A DNA stretch of 43,792 nucleotides. Origin: an uncultured Acidobacteriota bacterium (GTDB taxonomy: Bacteria; Acidobacteriota; Terriglobia; UBA7540; JAPUME01). Position 1 is the first letter of the stretch. Each line of letters starts with the position of its first letter. The translations under genes and the position numbers were made by a program. Below the pieces are notes generated by a model. The model saw nothing but the letters and a program-made list of their open reading frames with translations, searched no databases and was not told where the DNA came from. The DNA is taken from the NCBI GenBank assembly GCA_964605715.1, contig CAZSDV010000003.1, forward strand, positions 19,175 through 62,966, written 5' to 3'. Shown one piece after another: positions 1 through 42,328 of the stretch.

Positions 1-395
1 GCCTAGGTCAAGTGAGCTCGCTGGTGTGGAGTCTGGCTTTGGCGGCCCTGGTAACTGCGATTCTTGCGGTGGGGTCTATCACCCTGGCAACAATTCTTGA
101 GCGTCGCCCTGAGATCGGACTTATGAAAGCGATGGGGGCGGGAGAACCTCACATAGTCCAGCTTTTTCTTTTTGAAGCCACTGTAACGGGTTTACTTGGA
201 GGGGTATTGGGTTACCTTTCAGGATCGCTGCTCGCCAGCGCCTTGGCGGAAAGGATTTTTGGGGTCCCAACTTCAGTCGAATGGATAATTTTCCCTGGAA
301 TTTTGACCGTTGCATTACTGATTAACTTGGCCGGGCATTTTTGGCCACTCATGTGGGCTAGGCGGTTCTCACCGAAAGAGATTTTACATGACTAG
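1..395 (+). CDS. ABC transporter permease, FtsX/MacB family (C-terminal fragment, 5' end outside window)
   Basis: The frame is open to the window edge. The translation ...ILERRPEIGLMKAMGAGEPHIVQLFLFEATVTGLLGG... is the conserved FtsX C-terminal TM module. The stop TAG 393-395 overlaps the next ATG (388). Confidence 0.8.
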   Translation, partial: LGQVSSLVWSLALAALVTAILAVGSITLATILERRPEIGLMKAMGAGEPHIVQLFLFEATVTGLLGGVLGYLSGSLLASALAERIFGVPTSVEWIIFPGILTVALLINLAGHFWPLMWARRFSPKEILHD

Positions 396-5991: not shown

Positions 5992-6013
5992 GTGGGCCTA
6001 GGCCCACTTTTTT
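5992..6013 (+). terminator. terminator-like hairpin in the rimP leader (candidate attenuator)
   Basis: Perfect 16-nt palindrome GTGGGCCTAGGCCCAC (5992-6007) followed directly by TTTTTT (6008-6013), 8 nt before the rimP ATG. There is no upstream + strand gene for it to terminate. Confidence 0.5.
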
Positions 6014-6021
6014 GTTGGATA

Positions 6022-6480
6022 ATGAACGTTAACTCTGAATTAATACGAGAGATTGCTTCAAGAGTGGCGGTTTCAGAGGGATTTGAGCTTGTTGATATGG
6101 AGCTTAAGGGTTCCTCTTCGAACCACCTCCTGAGGATATATATCCACAAGTCTGGTGGAATTGATCATGGCGACTGCCAGTTAGTTAGTGAGCAAATGAG
6201 CGCAATCCTGGACGTTGAGGACCTGTTTCCGGGTAGATACACTTTGGAAGTCTCTTCCCCCGGCCTTGATCGTCCTTTGAGGAATGCCGCGGATTTTCAG
6301 CGCTCCTACGGGCAGCGAGCTAAGATCACCCTCCGCGAACCTATGGCCGGCCAACGTAGTTTTGAGGGTCGGCTAATGAGATTTAAAGAAGGGTGTTTGC
6401 AAGTGGAGGTTGACGACAATAAGATTTTGGAACTGAAACACGAAAACATTGTGCGAGCAAAACTCCTGGTTGAGTTTTGA
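6022..6480 (+). CDS. rimP: ribosome maturation factor RimP
   Basis: 152 aa from ATG 6022. Contains GFELVDMELKG....LRIYI and LEVSSPGLDRPL, and sits immediately upstream of nusA. Confidence 0.9.
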   Translation: MNVNSELIREIASRVAVSEGFELVDMELKGSSSNHLLRIYIHKSGGIDHGDCQLVSEQMSAILDVEDLFPGRYTLEVSSPGLDRPLRNAADFQRSYGQRAKITLREPMAGQRSFEGRLMRFKEGCLQVEVDDNKILELKHENIVRAKLLVEF

Positions 6481-6564
6481 GTGAATCGAGCCGCTGGTGG
6501 AGTTGGATAGCAAGTCCGGTTGGCTTGCAAGATAAGATCAAAGGCTGACAAGAGGATCCAAATA

Positions 6565-8181
6565 ATGGCAACGAGTTTACTTTTTCAAACAATTGATCAA
6601 TTGGGCCGTGAGAAAGGCATCGATACGGAAGTTATCGTTGGAGCAGTTGAGGATGCAATTCTGGTTGCTGTCCGGAAGTACTATAAGACCGATGATGCTC
6701 TTCTTTCACAGTTCAATCGGAAAACCGGAGTGGTAGAAGTTTTTGCAGTGAAAAAAGTAACGGAGACCGTTACTGATCCTACGAAAGAGATTTCCCTGGA
6801 AGATGCGAAAAGATACGAACCTGAAATCAATGTGGAGGAGGAAATCCGAATATCCCTACCTACAGATGTGCTAGGACGAATCGCAGCACAGACGGCTAAA
6901 CAGGTCATTTTCCAGAAGGTACGTGAAGCAGAGCGTGAATCCGTTCATGCTGAATACAGCCAGCGGAACGGCGAGTTAGTGAATTGCATGGTTAAGCGGG
7001 TTGAAGGTCCAGACCTTATTGTTGACCTAGGGCGTACCGAAGGTCGCCTGCCTCGGCGTGAGCAGTCCCGCCTGGAAAGTTACCAGATTGGGGACCGGAT
7101 CAGGGTTGTTATTGTTGAAGTAGATCGTACAGCGAGAGGTCCTCAGGTAATCGTTTCACGAGCTGAGCCAATTTTGGTGCAGCGCCTTTTTGAAATGGAA
7201 GTTCCCGAAATCTATGATGGGACGGTGGTGGTTAAAATGCTCGCACGGGAAGCGGGCGAGCGAACTAAAATTGCTGTTTTTTCAAACCAGAGTGATGTTG
7301 ATTGTGTCGGGGCTTGCGTCGGGATGAAAGGTTCTCGCGTGCAGTCAATCATCCGGGAATTGCAAGGCGAGAAGATCGACATTATTCAGTACGACGAAGA
7401 TCCTATTCGTTTTGCTGGTAACGCCATTAGTCCAGCTAAAGGTACCACCGTTTCAGTAGCTGACGTAGAAGAGCGGCGCTTGGAGATTGTGGTAGATGAT
7501 ACTCAGCTATCCCTTGCCATTGGACGGAAAGGGCAGAATGTTCGTTTGGCGGCAAAGCTTCTCGGTTGGCATGTTGATATCAAGAGTGAAGAAGAGAAGC
7601 GCCAGGAAGTTGAAATTCAGATGGCTGCCTTGACGCGCTCTGGTACATCGGTAAGCGCACTCGAAAGTATTGGCCAAAAGACCTTGAAGAAACTTATGGA
7701 TCACGATATCGATACCATTGAGACTCTGGCACAGACGACGCCAGCTGAATTGACACAGCTGCCTGGTATTGGAGAAAAGACAGTGGAAAAGATTCGGGAA
7801 GCCGTGGCTGATTTTTTTGAGCAAGTACCTGACCAAATTACCGAGGAAGCCGAATCTGACAGCATTAAAGTGGAAGCTGAATTGGAGTCCGGCGAAGAAG
7901 CAGAAGATGGCATGACCCCGGAAAGTGAAGCAGATATTGCAACGGAAGGGGTCGAGATGGGAGATGAGTCCCAGGCTGATCAGGTTACGGGGTCGGAGGA
8001 AGCTGGGAGGCAGGAAACTGAAGAAGAAGTGACAGAGGCTGGCTTGGAGATTAAGGAGGCCAGAGAGTTTTCTGAGTCTGAAGAAGCAAAAGTAACAGAA
8101 ACCTCGACCACAGCGGAATTCGTTGAAGGTGATAAACTAGATTCGACCGCGACGGTGGATAAAGATGCCGAAGAAGATTAA
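6565..8181 (+). CDS. nusA: transcription termination/antitermination factor NusA with a long acidic C-terminal tail
   Basis: Starts at ATG 6565 (MATSLLFQTIDQLGREKGID). Has an S1 domain, two KH domains (GACVGMKGSRVQ, AIGRKGQNVRLA) and an HhH (LPGIGEKTVEKI), followed by a ~110-aa E/D-rich tail. Confidence 0.95.
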   Translation: MATSLLFQTIDQLGREKGIDTEVIVGAVEDAILVAVRKYYKTDDALLSQFNRKTGVVEVFAVKKVTETVTDPTKEISLEDAKRYEPEINVEEEIRISLPTDVLGRIAAQTAKQVIFQKVREAERESVHAEYSQRNGELVNCMVKRVEGPDLIVDLGRTEGRLPRREQSRLESYQIGDRIRVVIVEVDRTARGPQVIVSRAEPILVQRLFEMEVPEIYDGTVVVKMLAREAGERTKIAVFSNQSDVDCVGACVGMKGSRVQSIIRELQGEKIDIIQYDEDPIRFAGNAISPAKGTTVSVADVEERRLEIVVDDTQLSLAIGRKGQNVRLAAKLLGWHVDIKSEEEKRQEVEIQMAALTRSGTSVSALESIGQKTLKKLMDHDIDTIETLAQTTPAELTQLPGIGEKTVEKIREAVADFFEQVPDQITEEAESDSIKVEAELESGEEAEDGMTPESEADIATEGVEMGDESQADQVTGSEEAGRQETEEEVTEAGLEIKEAREFSESEEAKVTETSTTAEFVEGDKLDSTATVDKDAEED

Positions 8182-8211
8182 TTTTGGAGCGGAGGTAGCC
8201 TCAAAAGAAAG

Positions 8212-10761
8212 ATGAGTAAGATTAGAATCAACGATTTGGCACGGGAACTTGAGGTGAAAAGTAAGTTTATCCTTGAGTATTTGCCTAAGATTAACTTCCT
8301 CGAGAAAAAGTCTCATTCAAGCAGCTTAGAGGATGAGATAGCCAGTAAGGTGCGCGCCCATTTTTTAGCTTTACAGAAGAAAGAAGAGGCTGATGAGGTA
8401 GCACGGAAGGCTAGCCCTAAGCCTCCTGCCTTGAGTCCCGCAAAACCCGTAGAGAGACAGATTGCTCGGCCTCCATTGCGCCGATCCCTAGAGGAAATCA
8501 AGGCCGAGCTACGCAAGAAGAAGGTTCCCGTTCCGCCTTCTTCTCTCAGGCGCATTCCAGGGGTGACGACACGCAGTACAGCAACTCCTACTCGTGTTCC
8601 ACTTCCGTCCACCTCCACCCCAGCGCCACCGACGGCCAGCACGGCCCGGGCTGTTCCGGGAAAAGGTCCTATTGGAGCTAGGGTTTCCCGGACGGCTGTA
8701 AAGAAGGTAGCCCCTCCTGTCGAAGGGGGGCGTAAGTCCACAAAGACCACAAGAGCATCCAAGAAGGCCGATGCATCAAAGCCGCTTTATGAATTGGCGG
8801 TTCGCCGAACGCCGGGGGTACTCCGACCAGGAGTTACCCGTCGTCCCGGTGAACCTCACCCGATACATCCGACTGCTCGGCCCAGACCTTCGCAAGCAGG
8901 ACGTAACGCTCCTGCGCAACGGACCACAGACCGGAAACATCCAGCACAGCGCCGTTCTCCGGTTCCACCCCCGAAACCGACAGAACCGGAAATGGTGGAG
9001 ATTACTCGAAATATAACCATTTCAGAGGGTATTTCTGTCAAAGAGCTTTCGGAGAAACTGGGTGTGCGTGTGCGTGAGGTGATCACGAAATTGCTGGATC
9101 GTGGAATATTTGCCACCATCAACCAGACCTTGGAGAATTCTCTGGCAACCGAGATTTCGCGTGCGTGCGGTGCTGAGGTTGATATTGTGACATATGAGGA
9201 GGAGGTCCAACAGGAGGTTCAAGAAACTGAAAAGTCGGAAAACCTTAAGCCGCGTGCGCCAGTTGTTACCGTAATGGGCCACGTGGATCATGGGAAAACT
9301 TCTCTCTTAGATGCAATCCGAGAGTCTAAAGTTGCCGAAGGGGAGGCCGGCGGGATTACCCAGCATATTGGAGCTTACCGGGTTCAGGTTCGTGGGAGAC
9401 CTGTGGTTTTTCTGGATACGCCGGGCCACGAGGCTTTCACATTGATGCGCGCCCGCGGCGCCAAGGTGACCGATGTTGTCGTTCTAGTGGTGGCTGCTGA
9501 TGATGGTGTAATGCCGCAAACTCTTGAGGCAATTGCCCATGCGAAAGCTGCCAAGGTTCCCCTGTTGGTTGCTATTAATAAGATTGACAAGCCTGATGCC
9601 CTTCCCGACCGCGTGAAAAAGCAGTTGGCTGACCGTGAACTTAACCCTGAAGACTGGGGAGGCGATACGGTGATGGTAGAGGTGTCGGCTAAGGAGAGAA
9701 AGAATCTCGATCTATTATTGGAGATGGTTTTACTTGTCTCCGACATGCGGGAAGTAACGGCCAATCCGGACAGACTTGCCAGTGGAACCGTTCTAGAGGC
9801 GAGGCTTGACCGAGGACGCGGTCCTGTTGCTACCGTGTTGGTTCAGGCGGGATGCTTGCGCAAAGGAGATTCCTTTATTGCTGGAGCGATATTCGGTAGA
9901 GTGCGTGCCATGTTCGACGATCATGGCCGTAGCGTTGAAGAAGTGGGGCCATCAAGCCCGGTTGAAGTTTTAGGGCTCGCAAATGTCCCTCAAGCAGGAG
10001 ATGTATTGCAGGTAATTGAAGATACTGCGAAGGCTAAGCAGATTGCGCTTTATCGCCAAGGGAGACTTCGTGAGGCTACGATGAGCAAGACCGCCAGGCT
10101 TAGCTTGGAGCACCTGCACGACCAGATGGAGAGCGCAGATGTAAAAGAACTACCTTTAATTGTAAAGGCTGATGTTCAAGGCTCTGTTGAAGTGCTTGTG
10201 GACACACTGAATAAAAACAGCACAGATAAAGTGAAGATTAAGGTGTTGCACTCTGCCGTTGGTGCCATTACAGAAACTGATGTCCTTTTAGCTTCAGCTT
10301 CGAATGCCATTGTTATTGGATTCAATGTCCGGTCAGCACGCAAGGCAACGGATTTGGCAGAAAAGGAAAAGGTGGACATAAGGCTTCATACGGTGATCTA
10401 TAATCTGACTGATGAGATCAAGAAGGCAATGACCGGTCTACTAGCCGCCACCACTCGTGAGGTATCGTTGGGCCAAGCTGAAATTCGCGATACCTTCCGA
10501 ATTCGCAAAGTGGGGAATGTGGCTGGCTCCTTTGTTTCGGAGGGCAAGATCTCACGGGGAGCGCGGGCGCGGTTACTGCGGGACAGTGTCGTAATTTACG
10601 AGGGAAAAATACTCTCACTCAGAAGATTCAAGGATGATGTGGAAGAAGTAAAATCGGGGCTGGAGTGCGGAATCATACTGGAAAATTTCAGCGATGTCAA
10701 AATAAGCGATGTGCTGGAAACCTTTGTGGTTGAAGTGGTGGCTGAGCCTGCCTTGGCTTAG
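8212..10761 (+). CDS. infB: translation initiation factor IF-2
   Basis: 849 aa. Pro/Arg-rich N-terminal region, GTPase motifs GHVDHGKTS, DTPGH and NKID, and conserved C-terminal domains. Confidence 0.97.
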   Translation: MSKIRINDLARELEVKSKFILEYLPKINFLEKKSHSSSLEDEIASKVRAHFLALQKKEEADEVARKASPKPPALSPAKPVERQIARPPLRRSLEEIKAELRKKKVPVPPSSLRRIPGVTTRSTATPTRVPLPSTSTPAPPTASTARAVPGKGPIGARVSRTAVKKVAPPVEGGRKSTKTTRASKKADASKPLYELAVRRTPGVLRPGVTRRPGEPHPIHPTARPRPSQAGRNAPAQRTTDRKHPAQRRSPVPPPKPTEPEMVEITRNITISEGISVKELSEKLGVRVREVITKLLDRGIFATINQTLENSLATEISRACGAEVDIVTYEEEVQQEVQETEKSENLKPRAPVVTVMGHVDHGKTSLLDAIRESKVAEGEAGGITQHIGAYRVQVRGRPVVFLDTPGHEAFTLMRARGAKVTDVVVLVVAADDGVMPQTLEAIAHAKAAKVPLLVAINKIDKPDALPDRVKKQLADRELNPEDWGGDTVMVEVSAKERKNLDLLLEMVLLVSDMREVTANPDRLASGTVLEARLDRGRGPVATVLVQAGCLRKGDSFIAGAIFGRVRAMFDDHGRSVEEVGPSSPVEVLGLANVPQAGDVLQVIEDTAKAKQIALYRQGRLREATMSKTARLSLEHLHDQMESADVKELPLIVKADVQGSVEVLVDTLNKNSTDKVKIKVLHSAVGAITETDVLLASASNAIVIGFNVRSARKATDLAEKEKVDIRLHTVIYNLTDEIKKAMTGLLAATTREVSLGQAEIRDTFRIRKVGNVAGSFVSEGKISRGARARLLRDSVVIYEGKILSLRRFKDDVEEVKSGLECGIILENFSDVKISDVLETFVVEVVAEPALA

Positions 10762-10809
10762 TTGCTCCGCCAAAGTGCTCCTTCATCCGGCCCTGCCTCG
10801 GAGTCAGAT

Positions 10810-11091
10810 ATGCCGATTGGGGTCATGACCCTCGCGATTCGGATCCCTACAGCTCACTCCCTAAAAGAGAAAAGGTCTGTTCTGCGAAAAGTTCGCGATC
10901 GCCTGCAAAGCCGCTTTAACGTTGCTGTGGCGGAGTTAGATTATCAAGATGTTTGGCAGCGATCAACGATAGGTGTGGTTTCTATTTCGAGTAGCCGTAA
11001 TAATCTAGAGTTTACGTTTCAAACTGTGTTGGCTGAATCGGAAAAGATCCTGGGTCCTGACCTGGTCGATCACCAGCTTGATTTTTTCTAA
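10810..11091 (+). CDS. DUF503 (YlxP-like) protein
   Basis: 93 aa from ATG 10810 with GGAG upstream. Contains IPTAHSLKEKRSVLRKVRDRL, and has the conserved position between infB and rbfA. Confidence 0.8.
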   Translation: MPIGVMTLAIRIPTAHSLKEKRSVLRKVRDRLQSRFNVAVAELDYQDVWQRSTIGVVSISSSRNNLEFTFQTVLAESEKILGPDLVDHQLDFF

Positions 11092-11135
11092 AAATCCCCC
11101 CTTGCTCGGGGAAATGGGTTCAGGAGGGTAATTAC

Positions 11136-11555
11136 ATGCACGCCACTCATCGTTCTAAGCGAATGGCAGGTCTGATTCGCGCCGAAGTTGCAGCGATGTT
11201 GCTTTACGACCTGAAAGATCCCTGCATTGGATTTACTACAGTAACCGATGTCCAGCTGAGTCGCGATTTGTACCATGCAAAGATTTTTGTTAGTGTCCTT
11301 GGTTCCCAGCAACAGCAAAAGGATACCTTGAATGGCTTAAGTTCCGCCGCTGGTTTTGTTCGTCGTGAAATTAGTCACCGTTTGAAGTTACGTACTACCC
11401 CAGAGTTTCGTTTCGTGCTCGATCGTAGCAGCGAAACTTCAGCTAGGATTGAGCAATTAATCGAAAAGACAAAGTTAGAACGTCAACCGAACTCTTCCCT
11501 TGCAAGCGAAGCGGAGCATCGGCAGGATGTTGCGGATGGCATGAATAACGAGTGA
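11136..11555 (+). CDS. rbfA: ribosome-binding factor A
   Basis: 139 aa. RSKRMAGLIRAEVAAML...VTDVQLSRDLYHAKIFVSV...LKLRTTPEFRFVLD is typical RbfA. Confidence 0.9.
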   Translation: MHATHRSKRMAGLIRAEVAAMLLYDLKDPCIGFTTVTDVQLSRDLYHAKIFVSVLGSQQQQKDTLNGLSSAAGFVRREISHRLKLRTTPEFRFVLDRSSETSARIEQLIEKTKLERQPNSSLASEAEHRQDVADGMNNE

Positions 11556-11577
11556 TTTAGGAAAGCAGGGAACAACG

Positions 11578-12492
11578 TTGACAGAGCCTGCCGGTGTGCT
11601 GGTTATCGATAAGAGCCCTGGTATGACATCACACGATGTCGTAGTGGTGGTCCGGCGCATCCTCAGTATGCAGCAGGTGGGTCACTTTGGAACTCTTGAT
11701 CCTTTTGCCACTGGGGTGCTGCCGGTTTCCATTGGAAAAGCCACACGGTTCGCACAGTTCTATTTGAAATCACGAAAATCTTATGAGGGCACGCTTAGTT
11801 TTAGGTTTTCGACAGATACCTATGATGCAACAGGAAGGCCAACTTCACTTGCCCAAGATTTAAAATTAGATCTTGGACTTCTTGAAAAAACACTCGAAGG
11901 GTTTACTGGCCGTATTTTACAAACTCCACCAGCATTTTCTGCCAAGCGCGTTGGAGGTGTGCGGGCTTACCAATTGGCCCGTAACAACAGACCTGTTGAG
12001 CTTCAACCTGTTGAGGTTGACGTGTATTCTTTGGAACTTTCTGGTATTAAGGGTCCTGAGGTTCAGTTTTCTGTTGAGTGTTCGGGAGGAACCTACGTCC
12101 GTTCTTTGGCTCATGACTTGGGCCAAAAAATTGGCCTTCCTTCCCATCTAGTTGAACTGCGGCGAGTAGGAGTAGCAGAGTTCGAGATGAAAAATTCAAT
12201 TACGCTTGATGAGTTGGGCTGCATAGCAAAGCAAGGACAACTCGCAAAAGCTTTAATTCCACCTCGGATCCTGTTACCCGGATGCCCAGAGCTAGTTGTT
12301 CGCGGACGTGAGGAGAAAAATATTCGGCACGGTCACAGTTTTGAATTAACGGAGGGTCCGGATATGTGCCAATCAACTCAAGGAAGTCCTGCTGCTCCGA
12401 TACTGAAGATACTCAATCCGGAGAGACAGCTTATTGCTGTTGCTAGGCATGTTGCTGGCAGTGTTTATCATCCTAATTTTGTTTTATCTTGA
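11578..12492 (+). CDS. truB: tRNA pseudouridine(55) synthase TruB
   Basis: 304 aa with a TTG start. GVLVIDKSPGMTSHDVV and GHFGTLDPFATGVLPV include the catalytic Asp motif. Confidence 0.92.
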   Translation: MTEPAGVLVIDKSPGMTSHDVVVVVRRILSMQQVGHFGTLDPFATGVLPVSIGKATRFAQFYLKSRKSYEGTLSFRFSTDTYDATGRPTSLAQDLKLDLGLLEKTLEGFTGRILQTPPAFSAKRVGGVRAYQLARNNRPVELQPVEVDVYSLELSGIKGPEVQFSVECSGGTYVRSLAHDLGQKIGLPSHLVELRRVGVAEFEMKNSITLDELGCIAKQGQLAKALIPPRILLPGCPELVVRGREEKNIRHGHSFELTEGPDMCQSTQGSPAAPILKILNPERQLIAVARHVAGSVYHPNFVLS

Positions 12493-15471: not shown

Positions 15472-17151
15472 ATGGTTTCGAGGACAATGACTAGTTCACT
15501 TGCGAAAACGATTACCTTGGTGGTTCTATTGGTCGTGTTGCGTCCGGGGACAGCACAGAATCAAAGACAAGCGGAGTTTGACAAGCAGAGGCTAGAGGCG
15601 ATCGAAGATCTTTCTGAGTCGTTGGCCAACGACCTATTGGAGATGTCTGTTGCCGTTCGAAACAAAGACCTTGATTTAATTGGTAAGTTTGTTGCCAATC
15701 CGATCGTTGCAAAACCGCCTCCGAGCGAGCCAGATTCTCTGGTGCATGAATTGAAATGGATCCATGCGCATTCCTGGAAACAAAGACATGAAACACTTTC
15801 CCGTACAGAATTCCTTCAGGGTTGGGAGGGTTTTCTGGGCCACTTTTCTGAGATCGAGGATGCCCGCTTCAAAGTAAAGCAGGCAACCTTTGACGAATCA
15901 CAGCAAATCGAGGGCAGTGCAAGCGTAGGGTTCTATCTTATCGGCCGGGATCGTGAAGGGCGTCGCGAGTGGGTGACAGCTCAAGCCGATATTATGGGTA
16001 TAAAGAAGGGGAATGATCCATGGCGGATCAGTCGGTTTGACCTGAACTCGTTCGAATCCAAAATTGCGGTGAAGGATCTTTTTTCTGAAGTCGCGGTGCC
16101 TGCTGGAGTATCCGCTGTTTTTCCACCTTTTGGTGTGGAGCCAAACGACGGCTTCATGTATCACGGTGTTGCCACTGCAGATGTAAACGGAGACGGCCTA
16201 CTGGATGTTGTTGCTACCGGGGTGGATCAAAATTACCTCTACCTCAACGAAGGAAACGGCCGTTTTCGGGATATATCAGCAGAGTCTCTAGTGAAGTATG
16301 CTCCGCAAGGGTCTGGCCCGCTCTTCTTAGATTATGACAACGACGGTGATGTGGACATATTCTTTGCCGCGTTTGGCCCGCAAGTCCTTCTCGAAAATCG
16401 ACTTTTCCCCGACGGCGAACTTCATTTCTGGGACGTTTCTGGGCCTGCAAAGGTTGCCGTACGTGCCGTGGGGTTCAGTGCCGTGGCGGCTGATGTGGAC
16501 GGCAATGGTTTCCCTGATATCTATGTAGCCTCTTACAACCGGTACGGCATGGTAATGCCTAATGCGTGGCACCAGGCTACGAACGGTACACGTAATCCAC
16601 TGTTTATCAACCAGGGTGACGGAACTTTTCGGGAAGCAGCTGCAGATTGGGGTGTTGATGACGGGCGGTGGAGTTATGCAGCTGCTTTTGCTGATATTGA
16701 TGACGACGGGGACCAAGATCTGTACGTAGCTAATGACTTTGGGGAAAATGGTTTTTACCTGAACCAGGGCGACCGATTTGTTGATGTAGCCGCGACCAGA
16801 GGCTTGAAGGATCCTGGGTTTGGTATGGGGGTTTCTTTTGGAGATTACGACAATGATGGAAACCTGGACCTACACATTACGAATATGTCTTCGACTGCCG
16901 GCAACCGGATTCTCCGGCGCCTCTTCCCTGAAGAACAACGTGACGGCCTTTTACTGAAGAAGCTTGCCATAGGAAACAACCTATACAGGAACAACGGAGA
17001 TGGAACCTTTAACGATGTTACTGCTCAGGTAGGCGGCCTGCCAGGAGGTTGGGCATTTGGGGGAGGGTTTGTGGACTTTGATAATGATGGGTGGGAAGAT
17101 CTCTATACCCCCAATGGTTTTATCTCTGGCAAATCAATGAAAGATACCTGA
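15472..17151 (+). CDS. FG-GAP/VCBS repeat protein (CRTAC1-like), N-terminal part ending at an in-frame TGA
   Basis: Signal peptide, then repeated Ca-binding FG-GAP motifs (DVNGDGLLDV, DYDNDGDVDIFF, DVDGNGFPDIYV, DIDDDGDQDLYV, DYDNDGNLDLHI, DFDNDGWEDLY). Ends at TGA 17149-17151, in the same frame as the next ORF. Confidence 0.85.
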   Translation: MVSRTMTSSLAKTITLVVLLVVLRPGTAQNQRQAEFDKQRLEAIEDLSESLANDLLEMSVAVRNKDLDLIGKFVANPIVAKPPPSEPDSLVHELKWIHAHSWKQRHETLSRTEFLQGWEGFLGHFSEIEDARFKVKQATFDESQQIEGSASVGFYLIGRDREGRREWVTAQADIMGIKKGNDPWRISRFDLNSFESKIAVKDLFSEVAVPAGVSAVFPPFGVEPNDGFMYHGVATADVNGDGLLDVVATGVDQNYLYLNEGNGRFRDISAESLVKYAPQGSGPLFLDYDNDGDVDIFFAAFGPQVLLENRLFPDGELHFWDVSGPAKVAVRAVGFSAVAADVDGNGFPDIYVASYNRYGMVMPNAWHQATNGTRNPLFINQGDGTFREAAADWGVDDGRWSYAAAFADIDDDGDQDLYVANDFGENGFYLNQGDRFVDVAATRGLKDPGFGMGVSFGDYDNDGNLDLHITNMSSTAGNRILRRLFPEEQRDGLLLKKLAIGNNLYRNNGDGTFNDVTAQVGGLPGGWAFGGGFVDFDNDGWEDLYTPNGFISGKSMKDT

Positions 17152-18270
17152 AGCTTGTTTTGGCGCCACGTCGTGGCCGCATCAGAAAAGGTTGAGCAAG
17201 CCGGTAACCAGAAGTACCAGACCAATCATATGAGTGCTATTTTTCAGCAAGGACTTTCCTTTAGCGGATTTGAGCGTGACGCGCTGGGGCTCAATATGAA
17301 GGGAAAGCGGTTCCTTGACATCTCTGGTATTTCAGGGGTTGATTCCATTAGCGATGGGCGTGGAGCAATATTTGCTGACTTCGACAATGATGGTGATTCG
17401 GACATCTTTCTGACTACCCTCCAAGGACAAGCTCACCTCTTATTTCGGAACAATGTTGGGCAGGAGAATAACTTTATTCGAGTCCATTTAGAGGGCTCCG
17501 AAAGCGGTCGAGATGCTTTCGGAACCGTGGTGCGCGCAAAAACTTCCTCAGGTATCCTTACTAAGATCAAGGGAGGGGGAAGCGGATTTCTGTCCCAACA
17601 TGATCCCCGTGTGCTGTTAGGTTTGGGAAAAGACCCGACAGCTGAATGGATTGAGATCAAGTGGCCTAGTGGCACGGTTCAGCGTTTTGCAGATGTTGCC
17701 GCAGGTTCCACTTTGAAAATCAAAGAGGACAAGGCCGAACTCCATTTGCTAACAGAGAAACGCTTTCAACTCGCAGATCCTCTTTCGAAAGAGGAAGAGT
17801 TTTTTGCAAACCTAAATTTCAAGCGAGGTGAAGCCTTTCCAGACCTCGAACTTCGTTCTCTCACTAATGAAGTGATTAATTTGCGGAGCCTAGTGAAGCC
17901 AGATCATAGATATTTTGTAAATTTGTGGGCTACCTGGTGCGTGCCTTGCCGGGAGGAGATGCCAGAGCTGCAAAAGCTATATCCACAATTTCAGGAGGCA
18001 GGGATTGAAATCCTCGGCGTCAGTATTGATATCGATACAGCTGATCGTGTTCCACGGTTTCTGCGCGATCACGGGATTCTCTATCCTGCTTACACAGCTG
18101 ACAAGTCTTCGGTCTCAAAAATCTTTTCAGGGGAAGAGGTTGTGATACCAATGTCTTTCCTGCTTGATGGGGAAGGTAGGGTTCTGGAAGTTTTTACTGG
18201 TTGGTCACAGGAAACAGAAGCTAAGATTCATCTGCTAACATCTAACGGTTCGCGGGAAACTACCCGATGA
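17152..18270 (+). CDS. continuation of the FG-GAP protein: one more FG-GAP repeat, an UnbV/ASPIC domain and a TlpA-like thioredoxin domain
   Basis: Same frame as 15472..17151 with no stop other than the TGA, and no RBS or ATG near its 5' end. Contains DFDNDGDSDIFL, GRDAFGTVVRAK...GGGSGFLSQHDPRVLLGLG...IEIKWPSGTVQ (UnbV_ASPIC), and FVNLWATWCVPCREEMPEL (TlpA/ResA-type CxxC). Confidence 0.8.
   Translation, partial: SLFWRHVVAASEKVEQAGNQKYQTNHMSAIFQQGLSFSGFERDALGLNMKGKRFLDISGISGVDSISDGRGAIFADFDNDGDSDIFLTTLQGQAHLLFRNNVGQENNFIRVHLEGSESGRDAFGTVVRAKTSSGILTKIKGGGSGFLSQHDPRVLLGLGKDPTAEWIEIKWPSGTVQRFADVAAGSTLKIKEDKAELHLLTEKRFQLADPLSKEEEFFANLNFKRGEAFPDLELRSLTNEVINLRSLVKPDHRYFVNLWATWCVPCREEMPELQKLYPQFQEAGIEILGVSIDIDTADRVPRFLRDHGILYPAYTADKSSVSKIFSGEEVVIPMSFLLDGEGRVLEVFTGWSQETEAKIHLLTSNGSRETTR
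17161..17181 (+). promoter_or_regulatory. SECIS-like hairpin downstream of the in-frame TGA 17149
   Basis: Counting the U of UGA as +1: pairs G17-C29, C18-G28, C19-G27, A20-U26, C21-G25, with loop G22 U23 C24. Outer pairs G15-C30 (C16 bulged), G14-C32 and U13-A33. Confidence 0.45.
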
Positions 18271-21955: not shown

Positions 21956-23550
21956 AGCGTTTATGGTTTTTCCTTCTTGTCTTTAGCTGCGTGTTAAGAC
22001 TTCCAGCACAGGTTACTTACGAGCGACTACTTCAGGCCGAACAAGAACCTGAGAACTGGCTAACCTATTCAGGAAGTTATTCAAGTCAGCGTTATAGCAA
22101 ACTCAAATTAATTGACCGCAACAATGTTGGGAATCTGATACTGAAGTGGGTTTTTCAGATGAAGACAACAGTGCATGTGGAAACTTCACCTCTGATCGTC
22201 GATGGGATTATGTATGTTACTGATCCCCCTAATAAAGTTCACGCCATTGATACGCGGACAGGCCGTACCTTCTGGTCTCACCAGCGAGCTCTCCCTGGAC
22301 ACATTAACCGTACGGTCTGCTGCGGCTTGGTTAACCGTGGACTAGCCATACTGGGTGATAAACTCTATTGGGGAACATTAGATGCTCACCTGATTGCATT
22401 GGATTCGAAGACAGGGTCTGTTCTTTGGGATGTCGAAGTGGCTGATTACCGAGCTGGCTATGCGATTACCAGTGCTCCACTAGCGGTCAAAAATATGGTG
22501 ATTACGGGTATTGCCGGAGGAGAGTATGGCATTCGTGGGTTTGTGGATGCCTATGATTCAGAGACCGGGAAACAAGTATGGCGATTCTACACCGTTCCTG
22601 GGCCTGGTGAGCCAGGAAACGAAACCTGGGAAGGGGATTCCTGGAAGACAGGAGGCGCTCCCACTTGGGTTACTGGTTCATTTGATCCAGGCTTGAATCT
22701 GATTTACTGGGGAACAGGAAATCCAGGTCCAGATTGGGACGGCAGTGTCCGCGAGGGAGATAACCTGTATTCATCAGCTGTGGTTGCGTTGGATGCCGAC
22801 AGCGGAAAACTTAGGTGGCATTATCAATTCACACCACATGATGTCCATGACTGGGATGCCGCTCAAATCCCTGTCCTAGTCGATGCCAAGTTTCAAGGTC
22901 GTGATCGGAAGTTGATGCTGTGGGGTAATCGTAATGCCTTTTATTATATATTGGATCGAGAGACTGGCAAGTTTCTCTTGGGAAAGGCGTATGCTCGACA
23001 AACCTGGTCCGATGGTTTCACTGCAGATGGCCGACCGATTGTTAAGCCTAATACTGATCCCACCCCTGAGGGCAACCTAGTTTATCCTGGATTGATAGGA
23101 GCTACTAACTGGTTCTCTCCCTCCTACAGTCCAAAATCGGATCTGTTTTACCTTTCGGTGTGGGAGGATTATGGCAGCATTTACTTTACGGAGGAATCCG
23201 ATTATAAACCTGGTGACCGTTATCTTGGCGGTGTTGCGGCGAAGGTTCCTGATGAACCGGGAAGAGGTGTTATTCGTGCCTTGGACCCATGGACTGGCGA
23301 ATTAAAATGGGAACACAAGTTGCAAAAAAAACCTATCACTGGACTTCTCTCTACTGCCGGAGGTCTTGTGTTCGGCGGCTCAGAGGAGGGCTACTTCTAT
23401 GCTCTGGATTCTGATTCAGGTGAGGACCTTTGGCGCATTAACACAGGAGGTCAAGTCCGTGCTGGCCCTGTTACGTATTTAAGTGAAGGAAAGCAGCTGG
23501 TGTCAATTGCCTCCGGTAGCGCCATATTCACTTTTGAGCTTCAGCAGTAG
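21952..23550 (+). CDS. PQQ-dependent alcohol dehydrogenase (methanol/ethanol family)
   Basis: 532 aa with a signal peptide. Vicinal disulfide CC (C123-C124, nt 22318-22323), W-rich propeller repeats, and active-site D300-W-D302 (nt 22849-22857). Confidence 0.92.
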   Translation: MKRLWFFLLVFSCVLRLPAQVTYERLLQAEQEPENWLTYSGSYSSQRYSKLKLIDRNNVGNLILKWVFQMKTTVHVETSPLIVDGIMYVTDPPNKVHAIDTRTGRTFWSHQRALPGHINRTVCCGLVNRGLAILGDKLYWGTLDAHLIALDSKTGSVLWDVEVADYRAGYAITSAPLAVKNMVITGIAGGEYGIRGFVDAYDSETGKQVWRFYTVPGPGEPGNETWEGDSWKTGGAPTWVTGSFDPGLNLIYWGTGNPGPDWDGSVREGDNLYSSAVVALDADSGKLRWHYQFTPHDVHDWDAAQIPVLVDAKFQGRDRKLMLWGNRNAFYYILDRETGKFLLGKAYARQTWSDGFTADGRPIVKPNTDPTPEGNLVYPGLIGATNWFSPSYSPKSDLFYLSVWEDYGSIYFTEESDYKPGDRYLGGVAAKVPDEPGRGVIRALDPWTGELKWEHKLQKKPITGLLSTAGGLVFGGSEEGYFYALDSDSGEDLWRINTGGQVRAGPVTYLSEGKQLVSIASGSAIFTFELQQ

Positions 23551-23755: not shown

Positions 23756-26077
23756 CTAAAGGGTAGCTTTTCTCAGACGTAGTGCGTTGGTAATTACAGA
23801 AATGGAACTGAAGGTCATAGCCCCAGCCGCAATCATCGGGTTAAGTAATAATCCAAAAAAAGGGTAAAGGATTCCAGCAGCGATCGGAACCCCGAGAGAG
23901 TTAAAAATAAGGGCTAAGAAGAGGTTCTGGCGGATATTGCGCATGGTTGTACGACTCAACCGTCGAGCCCGTGTGATTCCACGCAGGTCCCCCTTAATGA
24001 GCGTCACCCCGGCATTTTCCATGGCTATAGCAGTCCCAGTTCCCATGGCGATTCCTACTTGTGCCAGAGCTAGGGCGGGGGCATCATTGATCCCGTCTCC
24101 GGCCATTGCTACCACATGGCCTTGAGCTCGGAGCCGTTTTACCACTTCACCTTTTTGGTCAGGTAACACTTCAGCTTCCATGCCAGTTAGCTCAAGCTTC
24201 TGTGCTACAGCGGTAGCGGTTCCCTTACTGTCGCCTGTGACCATAATGACTTTTATGCCCTCTTGGTTTAGCATCTTTATTGCTTCCGGAGTAGATTTCC
24301 TAATGGGATCTCCTACGGCCACGAGCCCAGCTATTTTGTTTTCCACAGCTACGAATACCACTGTCTGTCCGTCCTGTTGAAGGGTTTCAGCGCGATCGGC
24401 TAGAGTGCTCGGATCAATACCTAATTCTTTAAGCAGAGCGATGTTACCAAGAGTCACCTGTTGTCCATCCACCGTTCCCATTACACCTTTTCCGGTTAGC
24501 GATTGGAATTCTTGCGCTTCATGAAGATCCAAGTCTCTCTCACGTGCGGCCGTTACGATAGCGGCCGCTAGGGGATGCTCGCTTGCCTTTTCCAAGGTTG
24601 CCGCGAGTCGCAGAATCTCTAAGTTGTCCATGTCTGGTACAGTAACAATAGCACTCAATCGGGGCTTACCCTCTGTTAGGGTGCCGGTCTTATCAATTAC
24701 CAACGTATCAATTTTTTCGAGCACTTCCAGAGCCTCCGCATCCTTGATTAGAACTCCCGTGGTTGCGCCAAGGCCGATGCCGACCATGATCGACATTGGC
24801 GTAGCCAGCCCCAGTGCGCAGGGGCAAGCTATAACCAAAACCGCCACAGCATTTACAAGTGCATGAGCCAACGTAGGCTTTGGCCCGAGAAGGGCCCACA
24901 AGAGGAAGGTGATCCCGGCGATGGAGAAAACTGCTGGGATGAAATAGGAGGCCACCACATCAGCTAGGCGTTGAGTCGGTGCACGGCTTCGCTGCGCTTC
25001 ACTTACCATTTGGATGATTTGCGCCAGAAGGGTATCTTTTCCTACTTGTTCCGCGCGCATCTGAAAGGTACCAGTACCGTTTAATGTCCCGCTGGTGACA
25101 CGACTCTTAGAAGATTTTTCCACGGGGATTGCTTCGCCGGTTACAGAGGATTCATCTATGGAGCTTGTCCCCATGAGTACCATGCCGTCTACGGGAATTT
25201 TCTCTCCCGGGCGAACTCGGAGCCGGTCACCCGGCTTAACTCCTTCTATTGGCACATCAATATCTGTCTCGTCATCCTGTACTAGGCAGGCAGTTTTAGG
25301 TGCAAGACCAAGAAGAGCTTTGAGCGCAGTGCCGGTCTTACCACGGGCTCGGAGCTCGAGCACTTGTCCCAACAATACCAGGGTGATAATCATGGCCCCA
25401 GCTTCAAAATAGACGTCAATTCTCCCACTTCCACTTTGAAAAGAAACGGGAATGATGCCTGGCAAAATCGTGACAAGGACACTAAATATGTAGGCGATCC
25501 CGGCACCCACGGTAATGAGGGTGAACATGTTCAAGCTTCGCTGCGTTGTCGACATCCATCCGCGCTGGAGAAGCGGCCATCCTCCCCAAAGAACAACTGG
25601 TGTGGCTAGCGCGAATTGCATCCACCGCCCCATGGCTTTAGAGATTATCTGTTCTAGTGGTTGCCCAGGGATCATTTCTCCCATTGCGAGAACAAGTACA
25701 GGAAATGAGAGAGCGAAGCTTATCCAGAACCGCCGTGTCATCTCGACGAGCTCAGGGTTTTCTTTTTGTTCTAGCGTCAAAGTACGAGGTTCGAGCGCCA
25801 TGCCACATTTCGGGCAGGGGCCAGGTTCAGATTCGTTAACCTCTGGATCCATCGGGCAGACATAGCTGTTTTCTTGGCTTTTTTGCGGGGATCCTACACT
25901 CGATGAAGGTGTATTAGGATTTAGTTGAGCCATTGCAGGTTTCAGGTATTTCGCTGGGTGGCCTTGGAATTTTTCACGGCAGCGCTCGCAGCAGAAGTAA
26001 TATGTTTTGCCGCCGTGCTCGTGGGAGGCTACAGCTGAAGTTGGCTCTATCTCCATTCCGCATACGGGATCTATCAA
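23756..26077 (-). CDS. copA: heavy-metal (Cu+-type) translocating P1B-type ATPase
   Basis: 773 aa. TM CPC motif ([12 protein letters not shown]), DKTGTLT, SEHPLA and GDGINDAP. N-terminal TRASH/YHS-like DPVCGMEI...YYFCCERC plus CPMDPEV...CPKCGMAL, and no GMTCxxC HMA domain. Confidence 0.95.
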
Positions 26078-26098
26078 TGCTGAATCACTCCTTTTATC

Positions 26099-26650
26099 CT
26101 ATTTCATCGTGGCAGGAATCGAGATTCTGCGCCATTCACCTCGCACGATAGCTTTCCGGATCTCTGTGGCTGATTTTCCTTTTCTGGTTAGCTGGTCTGC
26201 AAGGAGGACCTCCTTGATGCAGGTGAGTCACCCAGCTCCGTGATCGGAGGCGTAGCAATCCAGCAAGCTCCCATGACCATGTTGGTCACAATAGCAGTAG
26301 CAGGGTTGCTGTGCCAGAACCTCGGGTATGGCGCTAGCAATACGGTAAGCACGCGCGACAAGAGGTTGGCTTCGGAAATAGGAAGCTGGTACAAGACGCG
26401 GGAAGGGTTTTGCATTCTCCGGATCCTTGTGAAAGGGAGGGGAGGGGCGCATTGTAGGCGACTGGACTGCTGAGGTTGGTTGGCGTGCCGTTTCTGCGCC
26501 CGGCTGCATAGGGGCAGGGGCACGTAAGTTTTCGTTTCTTTTTAGTAATCCGTAGATTCCGAACCCAACCACTAGCAGGACCACAAAAACCCAACTTCGG
26601 TTTTTGGGTTTAGGTTGAGGTTGTTTTCTCTTTTTAATCCTCCGACTCAT
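26099..26650 (-). CDS. membrane-anchored PCYCGC-motif protein, predicted selenoprotein (TGA 26230..26228 read as Sec)
   Basis: ATG 26650 follows GAGGAG. One TM helix (WVFVVLLVVGFGIYGLL), then ...QQPCYCYCDQHGHGSLLDCYASDHGAG-TGA-LTCIKEV...KGKSATEIRKAI.... The frame stays open past the TGA for 42 codons to TAG 26101..26099, 21 nt before the copA ATG. If the TGA is a true stop, the CDS is 26228..26650. Confidence 0.65.
26200..26216 (-). promoter_or_regulatory. SECIS-like hairpin downstream of the in-frame TGA 26230..26228
   Basis: mRNA +15..+31 = CAAGGAG-GUC-CUCCUUG, a perfect 7-bp stem with apical loop G22 U23 C24. Confidence 0.5.
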
Positions 26651-26970
26651 GGCTTGCTCCTCTGTCCCTTTCCTAATGAAGGTAATCAAATGTAATTGGC
26701 TATTCGACGCCTCTTGCATGAAGGCTATGTTTCTTAGTGCCCTTTTCAGGGGATGAAGATTACAGGATATACCAAAAGTTTCGAATTGATGGAACTCAAA
26801 TACTTTTTGGATCTTTAATATAAGATTTAGACCTTGCGTTGCGCTCTGTGTTTGTTATCGAATGACCACGCAAGGGATTCTGTTGGTAGCTGAATCACAT
26901 CAAATCCCAGGTACACTGGTTCCGAGTGATCACCCATTTTTTACGGCCAGCAATAGGAGGGGAAACTATC

Positions 26971-33387: not shown

Positions 33388-35079
33388 TCAGTTGTCCTCC
33401 GGGGAAGGAAGGACATCGGCCATGCCGATTGGTGGGATGTGCATAAGCGTGATACTCGGTTTTCTTCTTAAAAAAGATTGGGCCATCCCTAGAGCCTCTT
33501 CCATATTTCGGGCACAGTCCCATCCTAAGGTCCTTGCAACGCTAGAATCTTCTGCTCCAACGACGATAACTTTTCCTACATGTGCACGGCCATTTTCTCC
33601 CCAATACCACATGTAAAAAGGGTGCACACCATGGTAGGCGTTGCCGGTGCGGTACATGCGGATGTAATCGGGGTTATGTGCAAATTCCTCTTCGTAGTTC
33701 CTCTGTAGTTCAAAGGAGTCACGCGTCTCAGGCAGGATACGGTGAAAAAACTCAATATAAGAGGGGTGATGCTGTGGATCGAACTCATCATACAGTGGAT
33801 GGGTAAGAATCATCACGCCATTCTTTTTCACCACTGGCATATTTCTGTACATGTTGTGGAAGTACCCCAGTGCCAATACTTGCACGAGCACTGGATTCAA
33901 GATTGAGTTGACGTTGTACGGTGAAATAAATGGGATGCCATATACGACCACATCAGATTGCCCTTCTACGGGCACGCAGTACTGCGCGTAGCAATAGGCT
34001 AGAGTTTTTTGGTGTGTCTGATTTGTTGCTCCGGCATGGATAGCGATTGGCTCATAGGCAGCAGGAAAACTAAAGAGCAGTTTTCTTTTAGCGGAGCGTG
34101 AGAGCTTTTTTAGTATCCATTGCGTTGTCTTAAAGGATGCGCGATCGAAGGCTGAATAATCGTCCTCATTTTTTGCAAAAAATGACATTTTCGGGTGGAA
34201 CATTGCATTGTTGAGAGCCGTTTCGATGTGAAATACCTTCAGGTGTTGATTGATGACTTCCTGGATACGGTCGCAGGATGCAGTAAGCGCAGATTGGGAA
34301 GGGTCAAAATAGGAATTACACTTTAGGATGGTGCCCGGGGTATGGTGCGCCTGTAGAGTGGGGTAATCGCACAGCCCTACGCTAACGGATTTACTTCCAC
34401 CATCCATGGAAACTAGGTTTATGTTGACATAAATCAATAGATCAGATTCGGCTGCACGCCGATTGATGCGTACTCGCTCGCCGTTTTCAGTAGTGCCGAG
34501 CTCAACCATGCCGTTAGGTGCCTCACCGTCATGGTTGTAGAGACGATTCGGATAGAATTCCCGGAATATTTTTCTTCCCACCGCATGTTGGATTTCAAAT
34601 GGTGCCATCTTCCGGTGAAATGAAGTGGCGATAATAATGTGAATATCTTCGATATTTTTTTCGGTCAATAACCTCAGCAGGATGTTTAGGATTGTTTCAC
34701 GCACGTCAGGTTGTGGCATCTTTGGAAGAGGAAGGGAAATGTCGTCGATAGCGATTGTTACCTTCATGCCTGGTGTGAGCGAAGCTGCCAGCGGGTCCAT
34801 TTCTTCCGGATGGTCAATGGCATATTCGACAGCGGAGTCACGATTTAGAAGTCCTGGAATTGTGGGCTTAGGATAGACTACGCGCGTTCCGGCAGGCATT
34901 TTCACGTCGGTAAGATCCTCGCCGTTCCACAAAAGACGCGATGAGGAATTGCGGGTTAGGTGTTCTACGCAACCACTATCTGATACTAGTGCGTTTCGCC
35001 CCACTGCGTTAGGCGTCGGATCAAGAGATTCCAATATTTCAGTTCCCGCGGGAAAAATCACATTACTGGTTGCTGGCAT
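33388..35079 (-). CDS. LarA-like (lactate racemase N-terminal domain / DUF2088) protein, divergent, 563 aa
   Basis: VTIAIDDISLPLP, IIIATSFHRKM and ESDLLIYVN...GGSKSVSVGLCDYPTLQAHH are collinear with the LarA segments ISSDHTRPVP, VATGFHRPS and GGRKS...(16)...H as I recall them. ATG 35079 follows GGAAGGGGAG. Confidence 0.75.
   Translation of the reverse strand: MPATSNVIFPAGTEILESLDPTPNAVGRNALVSDSGCVEHLTRNSSSRLLWNGEDLTDVKMPAGTRVVYPKPTIPGLLNRDSAVEYAIDHPEEMDPLAASLTPGMKVTIAIDDISLPLPKMPQPDVRETILNILLRLLTEKNIEDIHIIIATSFHRKMAPFEIQHAVGRKIFREFYPNRLYNHDGEAPNGMVELGTTENGERVRINRRAAESDLLIYVNINLVSMDGGSKSVSVGLCDYPTLQAHHTPGTILKCNSYFDPSQSALTASCDRIQEVINQHLKVFHIETALNNAMFHPKMSFFAKNEDDYSAFDRASFKTTQWILKKLSRSAKRKLLFSFPAAYEPIAIHAGATNQTHQKTLAYCYAQYCVPVEGQSDVVVYGIPFISPYNVNSILNPVLVQVLALGYFHNMYRNMPVVKKNGVMILTHPLYDEFDPQHHPSYIEFFHRILPETRDSFELQRNYEEEFAHNPDYIRMYRTGNAYHGVHPFYMWYWGENGRAHVGKVIVVGAEDSSVARTLGWDCARNMEEALGMAQSFLRRKPSITLMHIPPIGMADVLPSPEDN

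Positions 35080-42252: not shown

Positions 42253-42328
<76 letters not shown>

Follow-up and report, generated by a model that had tools for sequence, protein, structure and literature searches.

Predicted selenocysteine codons in a CYCXC-family gene and an FG-GAP propeller gene of an uncultured Acidobacteriota bacterium

Introduction

A 43,792-nucleotide stretch of DNA from an uncultured Acidobacteriota bacterium (NCBI GenBank assembly GCA_964605715.1, contig CAZSDV010000003.1, positions 19,175 to 62,966), referred to here as the window, carries two genes that are each interrupted by an in-frame TGA with a hairpin downstream of it. One of these codons (site 1) lies in a gene of the CYCXC family on the minus strand, and the other (site 2) in a plus-strand gene for a large FG-GAP propeller protein that ends in a TlpA-like domain. 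From sequence comparisons, we consider it very probable that both UGAs are selenocysteine (Sec) codons and that the hairpins are Sec insertion sequence (SECIS) elements located within the coding sequence. This predicted identification is carried by the conserved TGA and by the pairing of Sec with Cys in homologues, and not by the hairpins alone. An earlier note on this DNA had proposed, from the matching geometry of the two hairpins, that the organism decodes Sec; the proposal is supported here, mainly by evidence of another kind, namely the conservation of the TGA, the presence of Cys in homologues and the family to which the site-1 gene belongs.

Results

Conservation of the two UGA codons

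The site-2 gene (15472..18270, plus strand, reading through one UGA) comprises 932 codons and encodes a secreted-type protein. It begins with a signal-peptide-like N-terminus and ends in a thioredoxin domain of the TlpA/ResA type, and Pfam further finds UnbV_ASPIC and five matches to FG-GAP_3 in it. Among solved structures, 9etn (cartilage acidic protein 1, CRTAC1; E = 4e-27) is the nearest. The predicted Sec codon (17149..17151, plus strand) falls in the motif K-D-T-U-S-L-F-W-R and would specify residue U560, for which the C-V-P-C active-site motif of the TlpA-like domain (17938..17949, plus strand, in the context W-C-V-P-C) is the proposed redox partner. U560, C823 and C826 are the only redox-type residues of the protein, there being no Cys outside C823-x-x-C826. 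The protein resembles the CRTAC1/ASPIC-UnbV FG-GAP propellers in its FG-GAP_3 repeats and its UnbV_ASPIC domain, while its clade differs from the CRTAC1 type in having Sec (or Cys) within D-T-U-S-x-F-W-R and a fused TlpA-like CxxC domain.

In the best 120 homologue clusters of the site-2 protein (55-100% identity), 105 end exactly at ...D-T. These shortened products are named "VCBS repeat-containing protein" or "hypothetical protein" in public records, and full-length relatives bear the NCBI name "CRTAC1 family protein"; P0005-P0008 are full-length homologues. A degenerate DNA pattern encoding N-G-F-x-S-G-x-x-M-x-D-T-NNN-S-x-[FY]-W-R, with the critical codon left unspecified, was run against a metagenome collection. 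The metagenome loci, together with the window and six loci from a genome scan, gave 124 usable site-2 loci, and all 124 have TGA at the critical codon, with no TAA, TAG or sense codon among them.

The genome scan was a protein-profile scan of species genomes with generic FG-GAP patterns, and its results are taken from the matches listed. Among these were distant CRTAC1-like genes and seven Sec forms that are close or moderately close; the seven come from Acidobacteriota, Pyrinomonadaceae, Vicinamibacteria and one Planctomycetota metagenome-assembled genome (MAG). Loci L001-L006 are matched by tblastn in one frame from residue 27 to residues 922-928, and the match to the Planctomycetota locus L007 stops at residue 835. 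Distant homologues with 27-35% identity, from Planctomycetota, Verrucomicrobiota, Gemmatimonadota and other MAGs, have TGA at the aligned D-[LTYI]-U position, and 11 distant loci from other phyla carry it beyond the 124 above. Cys occupies the Sec column in P0008, P0016, P0017, L059 and L073, and Cys forms occur in an Arenicella MAG and a deltaproteobacterial MAG. Across the 80 loci listed in the genome scan, a TlpA-like domain was detected solely where TGA stands at the site-2 position. Of the 17 such loci 11 have one, which is fused in ten cases and lies 2.5 kb downstream in the other; none of the 63 loci without TGA there has one.

The site-1 gene (26099..26650, minus strand) has 183 codons and ends with TAG 26101..26099. 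An alternative upstream ATG is present at 26719; the shortened open reading frame (ORF) P0121, 100% identical, begins at ATG 26650. The N-terminus of the encoded protein is membrane-anchored, and its motifs are PCYCYC and G-U-L-T-C, in the latter of which the predicted Sec codon (26228..26230, minus strand) supplies the U of U-x-x-C. The protein scores 98.7 bits against the NCBIfam model NF041379, "CYCXC family (seleno)protein" (cut-off 90), and 33.6 against the Pfam family PCYCGC, PF13798 (cut-off 25). The CYCXC family (OS_HP4, PF13798) is tabulated as a UxxC selenoprotein in a 2026 prokaryotic inventory (PMC13188914). The features of NF041379/OS_HP4, that is a CYCxC motif, a downstream U/C-x-x-C and an alternation of Sec with Cys, are all present at site 1; we see no notable difference from the family, of which this gene is a further member placed beside a copper ATPase.

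The alternation is evident in the homologues. In the best 120 homologue clusters of the site-1 protein, the Sec column is Cys in 92 (HGAG-C-xx-C-IKE...) and the remaining 28 end exactly there; the latter are presumably Sec forms. TGA stands at this column in all the Sec-form loci (L201-L206 and L213-L217).

TGA is a normal stop in the window, where it ends 13 of 34 genes, and a reassigned genetic code is therefore excluded. Sites 1 and 2 are the sole in-frame TGAs that interrupt a gene in the window. A third candidate, TGA 33390..33388 on the minus strand, is a same-frame junction between open stretches of 567 codons on its upstream side and 332 codons on its downstream side. This candidate was rejected, being an ordinary stop between a Lar_N gene and a gene for an NAD-dependent epimerase and having no SECIS-like hairpin.

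The downstream hairpins

Nucleotides at both sites are numbered with the U of the UGA as +1. At site 1 (UGA 26230..26228, minus strand) the downstream RNA reads UGACUCACCUGCAUCAAGGAGGUCCUCCUUGCAG, and its minimum free energy (MFE) fold, at -11.5 kcal/mol, consists of pairs 17-21/25-29 and 9-13/30-34. A continuous helix of 7 bp, from C15-G31 to G21-C25, is also possible, and would present the triloop G22 U23 C24 at 26209..26207. The predicted SECIS hairpin spans 26197..26222 on the minus strand, with an upper 17-nt stem-loop CAAGGAG-GUC-CUCCUUG at 26216..26200 (+15..+31) and a lower helix of +9..13 with +30..34. At site 2 (UGA 17149..17151, plus strand) the downstream RNA reads UGAAGCUUGUUUUGGCGCCACGUCGUGGCCGCAUCAGAA and folds at -10 to -13.2 kcal/mol into pairs 18-21/25-28, 15-17/30-32 (with C29 bulged) and 10-14/35-39. 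The triloop G22 U23 C24 is at 17170..17172, and the predicted hairpin spans 17158..17187 on the plus strand, the upper stem-loop being at 17163..17180 (+15..+32) and the lower helix joining +10..14 to +35..39. Common to the two is thus a G22-U23-C24 triloop on a helix of about +15 to +31/32, and refolding confirmed as accurate the earlier observation of a GUC loop at +22..24 on a stem of about +15 to +30/31 at both sites.

The same note had held the two coding contexts to be unrelated, which is not fully the case. At both sites +22..24 is an in-frame Val codon, GUC, seven codons past the Sec codon, and it is flanked by mutually complementary codons. The "identical geometry" is a match between two families (n=2), and an in-phase Val codon is a natural way to encode GU at that place. 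The shared geometry would also fit a spacing preference of the SelB of this lineage. In other phyla the position of the site-2 loop ranges from +20 to +27.

Of the 87,464 positions in the window, 113 (0.13%) show a G22U23N24 triloop on a stem of 4 bp or more. The same feature follows 4 of the 1,576 TGA trinucleotides, two of which are sites 1 and 2, and the chance of finding it at both gene-interrupting TGAs is of the order of 10^-6. The other two TGAs with a G22U23 triloop on a stem of at least 4 bp are 16014..16016 (plus strand), which is out of frame within the site-2 gene, and 23020..23018 (minus strand), which is antisense to a PQQ-dehydrogenase gene; with weak folds of -8.0 and -6.0 kcal/mol, these two are chance matches. 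None of the 13 ordinary TGA stops of window genes is followed by the geometry, and the MFE downstream of them is mostly -1 to -9 kcal/mol.

Selection on the site-2 hairpin was examined in an alignment of 109 distinct sequences. In helix 15-20/26-31, 95% of cells are paired, and the observed pairing, double-change count and covariation score were reached by 0 of 500 column shuffles; when the 3' partners were slid by 1-3 columns, pairing fell to 17-68%. Three pairs show double changes. Pair 18:28 is U-A in 67 sequences, C-G in 34, G-U in 3, and A-U, G-C and U-G in one each. The synonymous third base of an Arg codon (position 18) tracks the first base of the codon four further on (position 28), the combinations being CGC/GCN (Ala), CGU/ACG (Thr) and CGG/UCN (Ser). 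The Val codon of the stem is always GUG (106 of 106), and that in the loop varies (GUC 75, GUU 17, GUG 14), with G22-U23 invariant in all 109 sequences. Where codon 7 is CAC (His), as in the window, C21-G25 closes the triloop, and a Gln codon at that place (CAG or CAA) gives a pentaloop, G/A-G-U-N-G. Distant Sec forms with other peptides, L-P-Y-I-L-S-A-V-A-H and L-P-F-V-S-G-A-V-A-Q, have GGUC at +24..27 as the loop of a GC-rich helix. On folding the distant Sec forms, the MFE loop was GGUC, GUG, GGUCG or similar at +20..27 in 10 of 11, the exception being L009.

At site 1 the helix AUC-AAG-GAG-GUY-CUC-CUU-G, with 7 bp and a GUY triloop at +22..24, is identical in six Sec-form lineages: the window, L201/L202, L203, L204-L206, L213 (a Methylomirabilales MAG) and L214-L217. 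Six distinct Sec-form loci with this 7-bp helix stand at 51-76% protein identity, L213 and L214 have it as well, and G22 U23 is invariant in all site-1 Sec forms. No covariation was seen among the Sec-form loci, and the evidence at this site consists of invariant synonymous positions. L218, a distant Cys-type CYCXC gene (NCBI: Bryobacteraceae), encodes the same K-E-V-L-L peptide as AAA GAG GUG CUC CUG, and just 3 bp of the helix are left.

Comparison with known SECIS elements

The consensus for bacterial SECIS elements allows 3-9 nt in the apical loop and 4-16 bp in the upper stem, with a G at the first or second loop position followed by G/U, a UGA-to-loop distance of 16-37 nt and an MFE <= -7.5 kcal/mol (PMC13188914). 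Both hairpins fall within this bSECISearch consensus on all five counts, and we find no structural difference from it. The loop is of 3 nt, the upper stem has 5-7 bp at site 1 and 4+3 bp around a one-base bulge at site 2, the UGA-to-loop distance is 18 nt (+4..+21) at both, and the MFEs are -11.5 and -13.2 kcal/mol. At both sites the stem-loop lies within the ORF right after the in-frame UGA, and the structure appears to have been kept by selection in orthologues, to judge from covariation at site 2 and from invariance together with the loss in L218 at site 1. The consensus model is permissive, and a match to it alone is of low specificity.

The minimal SECIS element of E. coli fdhF is a 17-nt stem-loop, nt 15-31, beginning 11 nt from the UGA, with a bulged U17 and with G23 and U24 in the loop (PMC8659212). 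Site 1 fills exactly +15..+31, and site 2 fills +15..+31 in most relatives and +15..+32 in the window. In contrast to fdhF, the GU is at +22/+23, one nt nearer to the UGA, rather than at G23/U24; the loop is a triloop (a pentaloop in the relatives with Gln at codon 7) rather than a tetraloop; and there is no bulged U17, position 17 being base-paired in both hairpins, as an A in site 1 and as a G in site 2. The fdhF loop contains GGUC, and site-2 relatives often show a GGUC-containing loop like it. On the basis of these comparisons we file both hairpins as predicted bacterial SECIS elements of the usual kind, which depart in detail from that of E. coli.

Gene neighbourhood and other features of the window

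Immediately downstream of the CYCXC gene, a copper-type P1B ATPase is encoded as a separate gene (23756..26077, minus strand). A fusion of the CYCXC ORF to the ATPase was ruled out, TAG 26101..26099 intervening between the two. The ATPase has CxxC-type metal-binding motifs near its N-terminus, and YHS and HMBD Pfam hits were obtained in its orthologues at loci L201 and L202, in both of which the order of CYCXC gene followed by copper ATPase is repeated. Relatives among L201-L203, L213 and L217 have the CYCXC gene downstream of an RND pump (ACR_tran), and in L201 these two genes are separated by an insertion sequence element (DDE_Tnp_1/DUF4096). The metal-efflux neighbourhood (23756..26719, minus strand, in the window) is consistent with a possible role of the CYCXC protein in copper handling.

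Elsewhere in the window, a 393-codon ORF (1530..2711, plus strand) joins an ABC-transporter ATPase domain (amino acids 54-199) to an iron-dependent repressor's C-terminal domain for metal binding and dimerisation (amino acids 315-384). No repressor DNA-binding domain was detected in the ORF, which may be either a natural fusion or a merger of two genes. A conserved rimP-nusA-infB-DUF503-rbfA-truB operon occupies 5992..12492 (plus strand). The nusA, infB and DUF503 ORFs lie in one frame and were dismissed as recoding candidates, with TAA and TAG between them. The sole tRNA in the window is a tRNA-Met (42253..42328; ARAGORN and Rfam), which is also the only match in an Rfam search of the whole window at the gathering threshold. 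A scan of 200 fetched loci (1.66 Mb) revealed neither a tRNA-Sec nor a CYCXC homologue.

Discussion

Read by analogy with E. coli, recoding at the two sites would proceed as follows. SelB.GTP.Sec-tRNA(Sec) would bind the apical part of a stem-loop of about 17 nt (+15..+31) that starts 11 nt past the UGA and presents G22-U23 in its loop, and when the UGA entered the A site the tethered SelB would deliver the Sec-tRNA in competition with RF2. It is from that system that we infer the binding of SelB, the reason for the spacing and the insertion of Sec itself. Site 1 would thereby yield a 183-residue CYCXC protein with a U-x-x-C centre, encoded beside a copper ATPase, and site 2 a 932-residue FG-GAP/UnbV-ASPIC propeller protein with the single Sec U560. 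The latter would probably be recycled by the protein's own C-terminal TlpA-like C-x-x-C domain, in a putative redox relay. The Sec trait has been documented in Acidobacteria (PMC1794560), and Occallatibacter riparius has three known selenoproteins (PMC12013277); this is consistent with Sec decoding here and is no proof of it for this organism.

Several observations weigh against the assignment of the two UGAs to Sec and of the hairpins to SECIS elements. No selA, selB, selD or tRNA-Sec was found within the 43.8-kb window by ARAGORN and by Pfam searches of 33 ORFs, and in Rfam searches at E <= 10 neither hairpin matches any SECIS family. Many full-length site-2 relatives have Ser, Val, Leu or Ala in the Sec column, which would be unusual for a catalytic Sec. 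The stability of the hairpins is unremarkable when set against dinucleotide shuffles (z = -1.88 at site 1 and -1.15 at site 2). The close Cys forms at site 1, L207 and L208, keep the hairpin with its 7 bp, and close non-Sec relatives at site 2, namely L210 (Val), L211 (Ser) and L212 (Cys), keep the same hairpin as well. The hairpin alone therefore does not identify a Sec codon.

The simplest reading of the hairpins in close Cys, Ser and Val relatives is that they are SECIS remnants, left after a recent loss of Sec. Remnant SECIS-like structures have been described in Cys genes derived from Sec genes, FdhA and HesB-like (PMC1794560, Fig. 4). Like these, the close Cys, Ser and Val homologues of the window loci keep the helix and the GU loop; unlike them, the replacements here also include Val, Leu and Ser, and Sec is proposed to have been lost rather than gained. 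In one clade of full-length site-2 homologues (L210, L211, P0005-P0007 and P0056) the Sec is replaced by Val, Leu or Ser. The two of these whose DNA was examined, L210 and L211, keep the SECIS-like helix, which suggests that Sec was lost and that constraint on the residue was then relaxed while the protein was retained.

In a rival explanation that we regard as improbable, the hairpins would be by-products of the encoded peptides (K-E-V-L-L at site 1, W-R-H-V-V-A at site 2) and of codon usage, with no function as RNA and with the shared GUC a coincidence of two in-phase Val codons. Synonymous recoding, in which codons were resampled with the codon usage of the window and the peptide was kept, lends this explanation some weight. 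The strict geometry was retained in 11% of recodings at site 1 and in 13% at site 2, and it follows that the I-K-E-V-L-L and W-R-H-V-V-A peptides favour the fold. At site 2 the resampled MFE was -10.3 +/- 3.3 kcal/mol and 19% of recodings matched the observed -13.2 kcal/mol; this is not significant, and the resampling therefore cannot carry the argument for that site. The modest z scores and the hairpins of the Cys, Ser and Val homologues point the same way. At site 1, however, the resampled MFE was -5.1 +/- 2.3 kcal/mol, and just 0.8% of recodings reached the observed -11.5 kcal/mol. Peptide and codon usage also leave unexplained that third-codon positions are frozen in the stem and free in the loop, that pair 18:28 runs through the six standard pair types by coupling a synonymous change to a non-synonymous one, and that pairing drops as it does in the slid-partner controls. 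A GC-rich helix and a GGUC loop are formed even by distant Sec forms whose peptides differ, the distant Cys-type CYCXC gene with the identical K-E-V-L-L has lost the helix, and the persistence of hairpins in Cys genes has the published precedent cited above.

These controls bear on how much the hairpins can prove. The earlier note had proposed that similar hairpins after ordinary TGA stops, or in codon-shuffled controls, would speak against Sec decoding, and this came about in part: 11-13% of recodings and the close non-Sec relatives keep the hairpin, while none of the 13 ordinary stops has it. It had further suggested a check on whether TGAs with the geometry are enriched where they join two ORFs. 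In the fetched loci such positions comprised the two families and about five probable chance hits, near the background joining rate of 4.8%, and the comparison is circular, the loci having been chosen for these two families. As evidence, the hairpins are thus weaker than had been assumed, since the geometry survives in recodings and in close Cys, Ser and Val homologues.

Two further explanations dispense with Sec altogether. One or both TGAs could be true stops, through a pseudogene, a nonsense mutation or a pair of coupled genes, leaving a 559-amino-acid propeller fragment with a separate C-terminal protein at site 2 and a 140-amino-acid CYCXC fragment at site 1. This is how gene callers and public annotation treat both ("VCBS repeat-containing protein"; 140-amino-acid ORFs), and we nevertheless hold it to be very unlikely. 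The codon is TGA in 124 of 124 site-2 loci and in every site-1 Sec-form locus, never TAA or TAG; it cuts conserved domains, with FG-GAP repeats going on past site 2 and the U-x-x-C motif being split at site 1; and there is no break in homologues that have Cys or another sense codon there. The downstream frames are open for 372 codons at site 2 and 42 at site 1 and are conserved, and the first start-type codon downstream is TTG 17155, right after the TGA, at site 2, and a TTG beyond the TAG at site 1. Simple nonsense mutations, already thought less likely in the earlier note, are excluded by the conserved TGA, the Cys in the same column of homologues and the intact downstream frames. Downstream hairpins stimulate some read-through events, and the UGAs might on that account be read without SelB or Sec, by a near-cognate Trp or Cys tRNA or under a reassigned code, the hairpin being a generic stimulator of read-through or pausing. 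We give this scarcely any credence: the code is standard, TGA ending 13 of 34 window genes as noted above; homologues have Cys within a CxxC-type motif at site 1, and Cys is found at site 2 also; the site-1 gene belongs to a curated selenoprotein family; and the geometry fits an element of the SelB type specifically.

The recoding mechanism as such is ordinary and of the textbook kind, and little is therefore learned about recoding from the hairpins. Site 1 belongs to a known family. What may be new is the site-2 protein. NCBIfam release 20 has no model over the propeller, to which only sub-threshold thioredoxin-type models were matched; the 119-family table of PMC13188914 has no FG-GAP, VCBS, CRTAC1, ASPIC, PF13517, PF07593 or PF01839 entry; and a literature search returned nothing relevant linking FG-GAP, VCBS, CRTAC1 or ASPIC proteins with selenocysteine. 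On balance, and by a narrow measure, we favour the view that the fusion of propeller and TlpA-like domain represents an uncatalogued and widespread family of secreted or periplasmic selenoproteins, in which a lone Sec outside the thioredoxin fold would be catalytic and would be regenerated by the tethered C-x-x-C. With the same slight preference we would extend the family across Acidobacteriota, Planctomycetota, Verrucomicrobiota and Gemmatimonadota, where annotation would be dividing each of its genes between a "VCBS repeat" fragment and a tail without annotation.

For annotation, the consequence is that two shortened gene calls in the window should each be merged into a full-length selenoprotein, and likewise those of more than 100 public homologue clusters. 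The retention of the hairpins in Cys, Ser and Val relatives is a caution against calling Sec codons from SECIS-like geometry alone. The site-2 protein is of unusual architecture, in that a propeller bearing one Sec is fused to a TlpA-like reductase domain. If the reading of site 2 is true, a large uncatalogued family would be present in Acidobacteriota, a phylum common in soils, and the use of selenium would be extended to a new class of extracytoplasmic proteins, with a concrete hypothesis as to their chemistry.

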